A stretch of DNA of 64,000 nucleotides from Escherichia coli (GCF_013315695.1 NZ_CP054355.1); one strand, 5' to 3'; counted from the stretch's first letter, positions 13,379 through 26,061 are shown. A program made the numbers and translations. The notes: generated by a model from the sequence alone, not told the origin.

Positions 13379-14128
13379 ACGGTTTTTCCAGCTCTTACGG
13401 TGTATTACCTCCGCTTTGTAAAGGCCATTGATGCTCTCCGCCATCGCGTTGTCATACGAGTCACCAGTACTTCCTGTTGATGCCAGTAATCCGGCTTCCT
13501 TAAGCCGCTGTGTGTAGGCCAGCGATACATACTGAGAACCTTTATCACTGTGATGGACTGTGCCGGACGGTCGACGGGCCCATAACGCCTGCTCCAGAGC
13601 ATCCAACACGAATGTCGTTTCCATAGACGATGAGACCCGCCACCCCACGATGTATCCGGCAAACACATCAATGATGAACGCCACATAGACGACCCCCTGC
13701 CATGTGCTGACGTAAGTAAAATCAGCCACCCACAACTGGTCAGGACGTTCTGCCACAAACTGACGGTTTACGCGGTCGCCTGCGGCAACGGCTTTCCGGC
13801 TGACGGTAGTGCGGACCTTTTTACCCCGGAGAACACCGGCAAGTCCCATAACCGCCATGAGGCGCGCCACTGTACATCTGGCTACCCTGATTCCTTCCCG
13901 TAACAACTGACGCCAGACTTTACGCACACCGTATACCTGATGATTCCCATCGTATACGCGCAGTATCTCTTTCTTCAGCCAGTCATCGCGCTGCGCACGG
14001 GCACTGCGTTTATCAGGATGATGTCGCTGTTGCTGACAGTGGTAATACGTTGACGGGGCAATATGTAGTTCACTGCATACCGGTCCGACCCCGTACAGCT
14101 TACGCAGCTTATCCAGCAGTGGCATCAC
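13379..14128 (-). pseudogene. IS629-like transposase OrfB, 3'-truncated
   Basis: Identical to copy 2 OrfB up to KSWKNR then fused to unrelated codons. Confidence 0.8.
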
Positions 14129-14451
14129 TTTTTCCAGAGGCGGTCGAACTCCGCCTTCGCAAAATAAGCGGAAGCCTGGCGAAGGATATCGTTACTGCGG
14201 CGCAGTTCACGATTTTCACGTTCCAGCTCTTTCAGACGCTGACGTTCAGCGGTGGTGAGCCCGCCATCACCGCCTCCGGTATCCCGCTCATGCTGGCGTA
14301 CCCAGACACGCAGAGTCTCCGGTGTACAGCCAATCTTTGGGGCAATGGAACAAATTGCCGCCCACTGTGAGTCATATTCGCCCTGACTTTCCAGAACCAT
14401 ACGAATCGCCCTCTGACGGACTTCGGGGGAAAAACGAGTATTTTTAGTCAT
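14125..14451 (-). CDS. IS629-like transposase OrfA
   Basis: 108 aa [31 protein letters not shown]...; IS3-family OrfA with HTH. Confidence 0.85.
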
Positions 14452-14552
14452 CCTGTTTACCTCTTTCTCAGGGAGTTTAGTCTCCAGGATTCCCGGGGCG
14501 GTTCAGGATATGATTTTTACCTGTCAGAACATTATCAGATGGAACGTACAGG

Positions 14553-14813
14553 ATGGATCAGGAAATGACGTTTTCACTCAGCTATGAACAACTGACCCGG
14601 TTTGCGGAAAAACGCATCCGGGAATGCAATCTGGACAGCCACGGCGTAACTTATCTCTGCGAGTCAGCCAAAGCCGGAGCCGTGCTGATCTTCTGGCATG
14701 AACTGGCCATAAATGGCTATACCTCAATGAATGCCATAAAGAGACAGGAGATCATTGACGCCGACCATCAGCGCCTCAGAAAGCTCATCTGGCCGGAGGA
14801 TGACTGGAAATGA
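14553..14813 (+). CDS. Hypothetical protein (86 aa)
   Basis: ORF track; stop overlaps next ATG (ATGA), suggesting translational coupling with following gene. Confidence 0.4.
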   Translation: MDQEMTFSLSYEQLTRFAEKRIRECNLDSHGVTYLCESAKAGAVLIFWHELAINGYTSMNAIKRQEIIDADHQRLRKLIWPEDDWK

Positions 14814-15319
14814 CTCAGAGCCGCCGACCGTCGCCACTGCAGCGGAGAGTGCTGATTGTGCTGGCTGCCCTTGATGAAAAACGGCCAGGACCCGTGCTGA
14901 CGCGGGACATAGAACGGGTGCTGGAGCAAAGCGGGGAAGCCCCGGTCTACGGGCCAAACCTGCGCGCCTCCTGCCGTCGTCTGGAGGATGCCGGCTGGCT
15001 GCGTACCCTGCGCGCTCCGAACCTGCAGCTGGCAGTGGAGCTGACGGACGCCGGCCGGGCCGTGGCACAGCCTCTGCTGCCCGCAGGCGGCACTTCTGCC
15101 ACTGATCTGGCGGTGGAGCTGAACGGCATAACGTATCAGGCCTGCCGTGGGGATTTTGTGGTGCGTCTCGACGGCAGCACCTGTCTGCAGTTATGGAATA
15201 AAGAAGGCAGGGTGGTACGCCGGGAGGGCGATCCGCTGGAAGTGGCGCAGTGGCTGCAGGCCTGTCACGATGCAGGAATGGAGGTTCGCGTACAGATAAA
15301 TGAAAGTGCCGCTCCGTAA
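14810..15319 (+). CDS. Hypothetical protein (169 aa), possible winged-helix DNA-binding N-terminus
   Basis: ORF track; coupled to upstream ORF; no family recognised. Confidence 0.4.
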   Translation: MTQSRRPSPLQRRVLIVLAALDEKRPGPVLTRDIERVLEQSGEAPVYGPNLRASCRRLEDAGWLRTLRAPNLQLAVELTDAGRAVAQPLLPAGGTSATDLAVELNGITYQACRGDFVVRLDGSTCLQLWNKEGRVVRREGDPLEVAQWLQACHDAGMEVRVQINESAAP

Positions 15320-15338
15320 GAACACGCCTGTGCACGGT

Positions 15339-15686
15339 TTACACATCATCCCATGGTGGCAGCCGGTTAACTTTCCTGCGCCACCAGTGGAAAGAGGCCA
15401 TGAGCAGTCCGGACAAAAACCCCCCCGTGATACTTATAATAATGGCCTCACCTGCCACCATTCCTGACGGCCCCCAGTAGATAAACCACATTGCACATCC
15501 CCAGGAAATGCCCCATAAGCCCCCCGTCAGCACCGTGACCTGCCAGAACGGCATAAAGGGTAATGGCGGAAGCCGGATACCCAGCCGCCAGAGAATACGC
15601 AGAAGAGGAGGGGCATAATTGCTCCGCCACATCTTTTTGCTGTCCATCAGGGCAATGGCCCGGGCTTTTTTCTGCTCAAAAGTCAC
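15339..15686 (-). CDS. Hypothetical small inner-membrane protein (115 aa)
   Basis: ORF track; two to three hydrophobic helices rich in Trp/Gly. Confidence 0.4.
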   Translation of the reverse strand: MTFEQKKARAIALMDSKKMWRSNYAPPLLRILWRLGIRLPPLPFMPFWQVTVLTGGLWGISWGCAMWFIYWGPSGMVAGEAIIISITGGFLSGLLMASFHWWRRKVNRLPPWDDV

Positions 15687-15814
15687 AGGAGCACCTCCGT
15701 TCCATGATGTAAACGTGACACAGCTTATTGTTATTGATTATTATTATCATGCTGTGGTTATGTTGTCATGCATCAGTACACTGACAAAAGTGCAAAAGAA
15801 AGGAAAACTGGCAG

Positions 15815-16150
15815 ATGAACAGAAAATATTATTTTAATAATATGTGGTGGGGATGGGTGACGGGGGGATATATGCTGTATATGTCATGGGATTATGATTT
15901 TAAATACAGATTACTGTTCTGGTGTATTTCTCTCTGCGGAATGGTTTTGTATCCGGTTGCAAAATGGTATATTGAAGATACAGCTCTGAAATTTACCCGG
16001 CCTGATTTCTGGAACAGCGGTTTTTTTACTGATACACCTGGAAAAATGGGATTGCTTGCTGTTTATACGGGTACTGTTTTCATATTATCTCTTCCGTTAA
16101 GTATGATATATATTCTTTCTGTTATTATAAAAAGGCTGTCTGTAAGATAG
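15815..16150 (+). CDS. Colicin E1-type (pore-forming colicin) immunity protein homolog, orphan
   Basis: 111 aa; NRKYYFNNMWWG / VLYPVAKWYIEDTALKFTRPDFWN / C-terminal hydrophobic helix parallel ImmE1 (SLRYYIKNILFG / [24 protein letters not shown]); no colicin gene nearby. Confidence 0.55.
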   Translation: MNRKYYFNNMWWGWVTGGYMLYMSWDYDFKYRLLFWCISLCGMVLYPVAKWYIEDTALKFTRPDFWNSGFFTDTPGKMGLLAVYTGTVFILSLPLSMIYILSVIIKRLSVR

Positions 16151-24225: not shown

Positions 24226-24263
24226 GAGGGCTGACGCTCAGTGGAACGAAAACTCACGTTAAG
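24226..24263. repeat. Tn3/Tn2-type 38-bp terminal inverted repeat remnant
   Basis: gagggctgacgctcagtggaacgaaaactcacgttaag nearly identical to the Tn3 IR. Confidence 0.6.
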
Positions 24264-24292
24264 AGGTTTTGACTATGATAAAAGTCAAAGTA

Positions 24293-24329
24293 GGGGTGAG
24301 TTTGGATATGGAAATTATTGTACTATAAG
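24293..24329. repeat. Second Tn3-family-like terminal repeat (GGGG...TAAG)
   Basis: ggggtgagtttggatatggaaattattgtactataag; near-identical copy at 38614..38651 in the same orientation. Confidence 0.45.
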
Positions 24330-24474
24330 GAGAGCATGAAAAACCCTGGGGCAGTCACTGAATGAGGGACCAGCAGCGGTAAAATAACCAGCATAATTTC
24401 TGCATGGTCGATTTTTATACCGTGACAGGCTGTTTTTTATACTTGCACCGATTCCCGGGCACACTTAGCCTGTG

Positions 24475-24741
24475 TCAGGCCGGCATATACCTCAGCAGAC
24501 TGATATCCCGCGCGTTTTTCTTCAGCCCTGATACATTCAGCCCCGCAATGGCCCGGCGGTATACCATCCGGCCGCCGCACAGCACGCATTCGAACGGGTC
24601 ACGACTCAGGAACTGTTTCACCATTTGTGCATAGCACACTTTCGCCACTGCTTCCGGTTTATCCATCCCCAGAGCACGGTACACCTGCGGCAGCTTCTCT
24701 CCACACACCCGGTTGGCAAGGAACCCGAAGTACCTCACCAT
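24475..24741 (-). pseudogene. C-terminal fragment of an unidentified protein with CxxC pair (possibly a transposase), 5' end removed by IS629
   Basis: ORF track 88 aa abutting IS629 left end; assignment uncertain. Confidence 0.25.
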
Positions 24742-24805
24742 CTTAAAAAACTGAACCGCCCCGGGAATCCTGGAGACTAAACTTCCTGAGAAAGAGGTAA
24801 ACAGG

Positions 24806-25132
24806 ATGACTAAAAATACTCGTTTTTCCCCCGAAGTCCGTCAACGGGCAGTCCGTATGGTTCTGGAAAGTCAGGGCGAATATGACTCACAATGGGCGAC
24901 AATTTGTTCCATTGCCCCAAAGATTGGCTGTACACCGGAGACTCTGCGTGTCTGGGTACGCCAGCATGAGCGGAATACCGGAGGCGGTGATGGCGGGCTC
25001 ACCACCGCTGAACGTCAGCGTCTGAAAGAGCTGGAACGTGAAAATCGTGAACTGCGCCGCAGTAACGATATCCTTCGCCAGGCTTCCGCTTATTTTGCGA
25101 AGGCGGAGTTCGACCGCCTCTGGAAAAAGTGA
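24806..25132 (+). CDS. IS629-like transposase OrfA
   Basis: 108 aa, near-identical to copy 1 OrfA. Confidence 0.85.
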
Positions 25133-26019
25133 TGCCACTGCTGGATAAGCTGCGTAAGCTGTACGGGGTCGGACCGGTATGCAGTGAACTACATATTGCC
25201 CCGTCAACGTATTACCACTGTCAGCAACAGCGACATCATCCTGATAAACGCAGTGCCCGTGCGCAGCGCGATGACTGGCTGAAGAAAGAGATACTGCGCG
25301 TATACGATGGGAATCATCAGGTATACGGTGTGCGTAAAGTCTGGCGTCAGTTGTTACGGGAAGGAATCAGGGTAGCCAGATGTACAGTGGCGCGCCTCAT
25401 GGCGGTTATGGGACTTGCCGGTGTTCTCCGGGGTAAAAAGGTCCGCACTACCGTCAGCCGGAAAGCCGTTGCCGCAGGCGACCGCGTAAACCGTCAGTTT
25501 GTGGCAGAACGTCCTGACCAGTTGTGGGTGGCTGATTTTACTTACGTCAGCACATGGCAGGGGGTCGTCTATGTGGCGTTCATCATTGATGTGTTTGCCG
25601 GATACATCGTGGGGTGGCGGGTCTCATCGTCTATGGAAACGACATTCGTGTTGGATGCTCTGGAGCAGGCGTTATGGGCCCGTCGACCGTCCGGCACGGT
25701 CCATCACAGTGATAAAGGTTCTCAGTATGTATCGCTGGCCTACACACAGCGGCTTAAGGAAGCCGGATTACTGGCATCAACAGGAAGTACAGGCGACTCG
25801 TATGACAACGCGATGGCGGAGAACATCAATGGTCTTTACAAAGCGGAGGTAATACACCGTAAGAGCTGGAAAAACCGTGCAGAAGTGGAACTGGCCACAC
25901 TCACGTGGGTGGACTGGTATAACAATCGACGATTGCTGGAAAGGCTGGGCCATACTCCTCCGGCAGAAGCAGAAAAAGCTTATTATGCTTCCATCGGAAA
26001 CGATGATCTGGCAGCCTGA
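25129..26019 (+). CDS. IS629-like transposase OrfB (DDE integrase domain)
   Basis: 296 aa; overlaps orfA as in IS3 family. Confidence 0.85.
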
Positions 26020-26061
26020 GTTCACAGATAAAACACTCTCCAGGAAACCCGGGGCGGTTCA

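Follow-up and report, generated by a model that had tools for sequence, protein, structure and literature searches.

Inverted IS629 copies around the cjrABC-senB region of a pUTI89-like plasmid: probable inversion of the cargo by homologous recombination

The cjrABC-senB virulence locus of Escherichia coli lies, in the stretch of DNA analysed here (64,000 nucleotides of NZ_CP054355.1, assembly GCF_013315695.1; hereafter the window), between two copies of the insertion sequence (IS) IS629 that face each other, and the question that this arrangement raises is whether the two copies move the locus, turn it over, or do neither. Its sequence places the window on a pUTI89-like IncF virulence plasmid; the first 37.9 kb are nearly identical, at the same coordinates, to E. 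coli MSB1_4I plasmid 2 (NZ_LR898875.1, typed IncFIA/FIB/FIC). An earlier note on this DNA had described a truncated copy (13379-14505, minus strand) and a complete copy (24752-26061, plus strand) of one IS3-family element as brackets of a possible composite unit of about 10 kb, able to be mobilised or to be inverted by homologous recombination. The description of the copies is correct, the cargo is a segment of 10,246 bp (14506-24751; hereafter S), and its contents are those listed there, a rep remnant, an AT-rich cassette, cjrA, cjrB, cjrC and a YncE-like gene, which is senB/TieB. As to interpretation, inversion is borne out by both orientations of S in relatives and by chimeric repeat arms, whereas a mobilisable composite unit is not, as an outer end has been lost and duplications are missing. 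We consider it very probable that S lies between two independently acquired IS629 copies which serve as portable homology, and that recombination between them flips the 10.2-kb segment.

The identity of the element is clear from its right copy, copy B. The IS629/IS1203 group consists of elements of about 1.3 kb with terminal inverted repeats starting TGAACCGCC, and copy B conforms to this; it carries TGAACCGCCCCGGG at both ends in inverted orientation and shares 95-97% identity with copies that are annotated as IS629 or IS1203. Its orfA and orfB overlap at AAAAAG, and the ALIL frameshift pseudoknot of Rfam scores 116 bits in both copies, so that joining of orfA to orfB by programmed -1 frameshifting is predicted, as is characteristic of the family. 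No 3-bp target-site duplication surrounds copy B, the flanks being AAC and CTT; this is consistent with a later rearrangement at that place and is no argument against the identity of the IS. Its right inverted repeat (IRR), at 26061, adjoins a truncated autotransporter gene. The left copy, A', retains orfA (14125-14451) and the pseudoknot (14054-14170), lacks the 3' end of orfB, and has lost IS positions 1128-1310. There the end of ISEc22 at 13380 abuts and truncates IS629, with 2 nt of microhomology at the joint. The 8-bp flanks of ISEc22 do not match each other and no further IS629 fragment of at least 60 nt is found in the 64-kb window; together these argue that the ISEc22/IS629 junction is a rearrangement joint and not a simple insertion. 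The ISEc22 of the window is collinear with the complete ISEc22 of CP088697.1.

A repeat search over the same 64 kb returned a single inverted repeat pair, 13379-14506 and 24751-25878 (1128 nt, 99% complementary), and no other repeat of at least 60 nt. In each arm the outermost base matches by chance alone, and the true IS ends (TGAACCGCCCCGGG...) are at 14505 and 24752. As a repeat, the two IS629 copies therefore share 1,127 nt with 14 mismatches (98.8% identity), which cannot be chance. The 14 differing sites fall in two clusters, IS positions 33-223 and 947-1082. The left inverted repeats (IRL) of both copies point inward to the cargo. Repeats of 1,127 bp at 98.8% identity are far above the minimal substrate for RecA-dependent exchange in E. 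coli.

Both orientations of S are found among related plasmids. For a census of PLSDB we used 11.3-kb intron-tolerant queries that link an edge of S to the iron/copper-transport flank beginning with the autotransporter gene (flank Y); the searches return at most 5,000 records, and the resulting counts are approximate. The window-type link, from the right edge of S to flank Y, is present in 119 records, and the flipped link, from the left edge of S to flank Y, in 286, including pUTI89, pRS218, pUM146, pSE15 and pEC14_114. On the background of a flank deleted up to window position 27500 the numbers are 92 window-type and 282 flipped records. Each of the two flank states is found with each orientation, four combinations in all, which implies that inversion has occurred at least twice. 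S and its flanks are 99.6-99.9% identical to those of pUTI89, pRS218, pAVS0096-a and hundreds of other plasmids; the window has S in the orientation opposite to that of pUTI89 and the same as that of pAVS0096-a (NZ_CP076345.1, where the match is on the deleted-flank background). Two pairs of plasmids present the isomers directly. pSCU-204-1 (NZ_CP053253.1) and pE16EC0027-1 (CP088583.1) are 99.9% identical, and their sole difference is the inversion of S together with 795 bp of IS on either side, while the ISEc22/IS100 and iron-transport flanks are unchanged. With an undeleted flank, CP048871.1 has the window orientation and pMTY13754 (NZ_CP134364.1) the flipped one between the same ISEc22 and autotransporter flanks. 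Thus, the comparison with related plasmids that the earlier note proposed strongly supports inversion: it finds exactly segment S in both orientations between the same flanks.

Might the segment be fixed, and the two orientations be artefacts of assembly across inverted repeats of 1-3 kb? A short-read assembly does leave the orientation undetermined when the repeats exceed the reads in length, and the record of pSCU-204-1 is linear, that is, unfinished. Yet dozens of complete records, made by many laboratories in different years and including pUTI89, match one orientation or the other in a single unbroken stretch, an independent long-read study also reported the reversal (PMC9769970), and single-nucleotide haplotypes of the arms differ consistently between isomers in a reciprocal pattern that mis-joining would not give. 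We therefore regard an artefact as barely credible.

The arms themselves reveal where exchange took place. At each of the 14 sites where the two IS629 copies of the window differ, we determined which allele the arms of related plasmids have. In the window and in a close relative (L001) the left arm is purely of type A and the right arm purely of type B, and the window has no conversion tracts. Pure B-type copies are found also in CP056803.1 and NZ_CP147612.1, which fits the window arrangement as the non-recombinant one. In the flipped pMTY13754 the arm on the ISEc22 side is of type B at positions 33-223 and of type A at 947-1082, and the arm on the autotransporter side is its exact reciprocal, placing the crossover between IS positions 223 and 947. 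In pUTI89 the switch lies between positions 148 and 223. pE16EC0027-1 carries a short conversion patch at positions 93-102, and the right arm of pSCU-204-1 keeps the A allele at position 223, as expected if this plasmid had flipped back from a pUTI89-like form. All isomers have the same four junctions (ISEc22/IS629, IRL with the left end of S, IRL with the right end of S, and IRR/autotransporter).

These patterns bear on which enzyme inverts the segment. The IS629 transposase could do so by intramolecular transposition or by acting on the two inward IRL ends, and copy B does have an intact transposase gene while two IRL ends bracket S exactly. Transposase, however, would break at the tips of the IS and make new junctions or duplications, whereas every IS/flank junction is the same in the isomers and the exchange points lie inside the arms, at places that differ between plasmids, with reciprocal chimeras and conversion patches. 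Exchange points within the repeats, at varying positions and with reciprocal products, indicate homologous recombination and not transposase acting at the IS tips, which is a very unlikely agent here. S thus has the properties of an invertible segment: long and similar inverted repeats, both orientations between the same flanks, and exchange inside the repeats. These comparisons show repeated inversion in this plasmid family, with both orientations common and crossovers within the repeats. The flip probably depends on RecA.

Do the short arms of the window plasmid itself recombine as well? In most relatives IS629 is interrupted at position 795, often in both arms, by a 2,261-bp group II intron (ltrA; Rfam RF00029). 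It lies at 3945-6205 in pSCU-204-1 and at 18024-20284 in pE16EC0027-1, and in both arms of pMTY13754 and of a further relative (L011); pUTI89-type plasmids have a 986-bp partial intron beside the deletion that reaches window position 27500. Arms of intron-bearing relatives measure 1.8-3.4 kb, as against 1,127 bp in the window, where both copies are free of the intron and its target (14505-794 and 24752+794) is intact. For the family as a whole, the lack of matches to short flipped-junction queries is a false negative, because the 2.26-kb intron splits the IS629 arms in most relatives; the 11.3-kb queries matched hundreds of records.

Several observations weigh against our interpretation. Synthetic flipped-junction queries of 2.3-2.5 kb gave no full-length match, that is, no flipped intron-free record, so that each documented flip had intron-lengthened arms, and the crossover may have taken place in the intron and not in IS629. 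At least 20 of the 286 flipped records are plasmids rearranged by IS26 that locally keep S in the window orientation; the number of flipped records is put at about 260-280. One of the rearranged plasmids is NZ_CP107123.1, where two inverted IS26 copies, one of them within ISEc22, bracket an inverted iron/copper-transport flank (12996-29261); an inversion of this type puts the flank upstream of S, so that joined BLAST matches mimic a flipped S and the count of 286 is inflated. The evidence on orientation consists of assembled records.

In the intron-free lineage the two copies could be inert leftovers of separate insertions that never recombine, with the polymorphism confined to intron-bearing relatives. 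In agreement with this, short queries found the left junction of the window type in 45 records and the right one in 22 but no flipped intron-free record, and the window shows unmixed A and B arms free of conversion tracts. On the other hand, intron-free plasmids make up a small sample, the switch in pUTI89 falls within IS629 sequence and not in the intron, and the length and identity of the window arms are well beyond what RecA-mediated exchange requires. We consider inert copies possible but doubtful; the intron-free 1,127-bp arms presumably still recombine.

The arrangement also invites its reading as a functional composite transposon, IS629-S-IS629, which would carry cjrABC-senB between replicons. 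Inverted IS copies bracket the cargo and the right one is intact; three relatives (CP056803.1, CP088697.1 and NZ_CP147612.1) have both copies complete or one differing outer flank; the pair in NZ_CP147612.1, where both copies are complete and of type B, is flanked by AAG on either side (528-530 and 20356-20358), resembling a 3-bp target duplication; and the flanking IS3-family elements have been suggested possibly to aid mobility (PMC11748317). Against this, the window has lost the left outer IRR, and so have the plasmids with the same ISEc22/IS629 junction. Target duplications are missing at either copy and at the pair, in the window and in CP056803.1 (flanks TCA and ATA); for the window a duplication around the unit is impossible because the left outer end is gone. 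The flanks of the NZ_CP147612.1 pair (window positions 5938 and 26062) do not adjoin each other in any empty site examined, and an AAG match arises once in 64 cases and is probably chance.

The distribution of the cargo likewise speaks against transposition as a unit. In PLSDB, 442 records contain 80% or more of S, as do 415 of 5,426 complete E. coli genomes; each of these genomes has a single copy, and the three of them that were sampled all have it on F-type plasmids. No instance of the same unit at unrelated sites was met among the inspected carriers of S, which are all F-type, with haem-receptor/ISEc22 and iron-transport flanks, or are IS-mediated derivatives. The Shigella boydii plasmid pINV has cjr-senB without IS629 within 5 kb, flanked by IS91-like fragments. 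Moreover, the copies differ by 1.2%, which suggests two separate acquisitions of IS629 rather than duplication of one element. Of the properties of a composite transposon, then, two IS copies bracketing cargo are present, and intact outer ends, a duplication around the unit and occurrence at unrelated sites are all missing; such a transposon is highly improbable here, and the arrangements in CP056803.1, CP088697.1 and NZ_CP147612.1 fit IS-mediated deletion and recombination.

A search for target-site duplications that might tell the ancestral orientation or the insertion history found no copy with matching 3-bp flanks in the window and its relatives. Matches between plasmids, AAC (right end of S and outer flank in CP088697.1), ATA (inner flank in CP088697.1 and outer flank in CP056803.1) and the AAG of NZ_CP147612.1, correspond to no contiguous empty site and are set aside as probable chance. 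In CP088697.1 the junction of IS629 with the left end of S is shifted by 3 bp (14564-14579; ATCATA versus ATATCC before the IS), and the copy there is about 96% identical to the left copy of the window; this suggests that an IS629 inserted independently beside that site, or that recombination with another IS629 replaced the copy.

Taken together, homologous inversion between separately acquired copies would proceed as follows. The left copy would have lost its outer end in an ISEc22-associated rearrangement, giving a pair with one outer end only. Homologous recombination of the host between the arms would then flip S, leaving every IS/flank junction unchanged, and a group II intron that homed into IS629 position 795 would have produced the longer arms of most relatives. 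The flip is probably neutral in function, as cjrABC-senB keeps its own upstream region within S. Conversely, frequent flips could yield mixed populations within one strain and alter expression of cjrABC-senB or of haem/iron transport through read-through from the IS, in which case the flip would be a crude recombination-driven switch on the virulence locus. The locus is reported to aid urinary-tract infection and also to increase complement killing in blood (PMC7412671). Given that crossover positions vary and that S retains its own upstream region, the inversions look like ordinary recombination and a switch is without support; we think such a switch most unlikely.

How does this inversion compare with known systems? 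Mobile units such as Tn10/IS10 and Tn5/IS50 also consist of two inverted IS copies around several kb of cargo; the pair in the window, unlike these, has one outer end missing, no target duplication, 1.2% divergence between arms and no evidence that the unit has moved. The copy-out-paste-in transposition of IS3-family elements passes through an IRL-IRR circle junction, which the IS629 ends left in the window cannot form around the cargo. With fimS, the Hin/Gin-type invertases and the shufflons the region has in common a segment found in two orientations across related replicons; it differs from them in that there is no dedicated recombinase and no short specific site, crossovers are variable, and the segment has its own upstream region and no evident on/off effect. 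From inversion between IS copies by homologous recombination in general, with its long near-identical repeats, unchanged flanks and internal exchange, nothing essential differs; the particular feature here is a retrohoming group II intron that lengthens the repeats in most members of the family.

The inversion and its general mechanism are already known. The region is the '10-kb ColIa, cjrABC, senB region' of Johnson et al. 2016 (PMC4933990), and for pAVS0096-a and pMVC465_A an orientation of cjrABC-senB opposite to that in pUTI89, between IS3-family elements, has been reported (Wyrsch et al. 2022, PMC9769970; PMC11748317). A 2025 study repeats the reversal and proposes that the IS copies 'may promote its mobility' (PMC11748317). 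Both papers (PMC9769970, PMC11748317) speak only of 'IS3 family elements', and neither a mechanism nor frequencies nor mapped crossovers are given in them. What is added here is the identity of the element as IS629, its missing outer end, the intron that lengthens the arms, and population frequencies with crossover mapping. The mobility proposal of PMC11748317 is corrected in that, at least in the window form, the IS pair has lost an outer end. No new mobile element or mechanism emerges, and the use of the result is practical. With inverted repeats of 1-3 kb on either side, short-read assembly cannot settle how the cjrABC-senB region is oriented, and orientation, intron and ISEc10 status and the haplotypes of the arms are possible markers to sub-type pUTI89-like plasmids. 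The locus of the window is the same as that of pUTI89-like plasmids; the arms of pUTI89 have group II introns and ISEc10, which the window is without, and the window keeps the complete right IS629 copy and the autotransporter remnant, both lost from pUTI89.

Segment S is itself a mosaic, and its parts are given in the table together with those of the flanking elements.

Table. Positions of the two IS629 copies, their neighbours and the parts of segment S in the window
Feature	Position	Strand	Remarks
ISEc22 (IS66 family)	8967-13380	-	terminal GTAAGCG repeats at 8967 and 13380
ISEc22 genes	tnpA 12895-13299; tnpB 12551-12898; split tnpC	-	NCBIfam IS66 TnpA/TnpB
IS100 inside ISEc22	9614-11567		5-bp flanking repeat; NCBIfam IS21 transposase
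Left IS629 copy (A')	13379-14505	-	IS positions 1-1127; IRL at 14505, on the cargo side; final 183 bp, with IRR, absent
ColIa/IncI-type plasmid fragment (left part of S)	14506-16191	+	two hypothetical genes, DUF6404 gene, colicin Ia-type immunity gene (15815-16150)
AT-rich cassette	16160-17250	-	30-31% GC; three paralogous small two-helix membrane open reading frames (56-68 aa)
Small Col-plasmid replication gene remnant	17271-18287	+	N-terminally truncated; Replicase and PriCT_1 domains (17721-18287)
cjrABC-senB module	18283-24156	+	99.3% identity to Shigella boydii pINV
cjrA	18577-19494	+	ChaN-like
cjrB	19502-20278	+	TonB-like
cjrC	20447-22708	+	TonB-dependent receptor
senB/TieB	22678-23952	+	beta-propeller; the YncE-like gene of the earlier note
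IS91-family transposase gene fragment	24399-24751	-	353 bp; right edge of S, cut by right IS629 copy
Right IS629 copy (B)	24752-26061	+	complete, 1,310 bp, IS3 family; both terminal inverted repeats, IRL 24752, IRR 26061
orfA of copy B	24806-25132		108 aa; HTH_Tnp_1
orfB of copy B	25129-26019		296 aa; HTH_21 and rve; NCBIfam IS3 transposase (transpos_IS3), 306 bits, cut-off 160
Truncated autotransporter beta-barrel gene	26062-26639	-	conserved outer flank of copy B; start of iron/copper-transport flank Y

The rep remnant is 93-95% identical to Col plasmids of 4-6 kb. The AT-rich cassette adjoins this truncated Col replicase gene, just upstream of cjrBC, the receptor genes for colicin Js; a small colicin plasmid that carried immunity-like genes may have left it behind. 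The score of senB/TieB in the YncE propeller model is 158 bits, under the cut-off of 400. In CP056803.1 a third, unrelated IS3-family element (12429-13686) lies inside S, at about window position 15337-15340, between the hypothetical genes and the DUF6404 gene.

The cjrABC-senB module is edged by IS91-family sequence, with a 354-bp fragment on the right (24399-24752) and a 60-bp match of 92% on the left (18283-18342). S. boydii pINV has the same IS91 fragment on both sides of the module in direct orientation (3054-3407 and 10968-11233). IS91-family sequence at both edges hints that an IS91-type rolling-circle element, and not IS629, may originally have moved the module. An old inversion would have put the sequence past the right-edge IS91 fragment beyond a further IS629 copy; this sequence was found in NZ_LR898875.1 near 43.8 kb and not in the window. 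Collinearity with NZ_LR898875.1, the best match of the window, ends after position 37926, beside IS26, and is lacking over 37927-44380, and the RepFII region (44381-46384) is only 94.5% identical; both suggest that the backbone past the virulence region comes from a different F-plasmid lineage.

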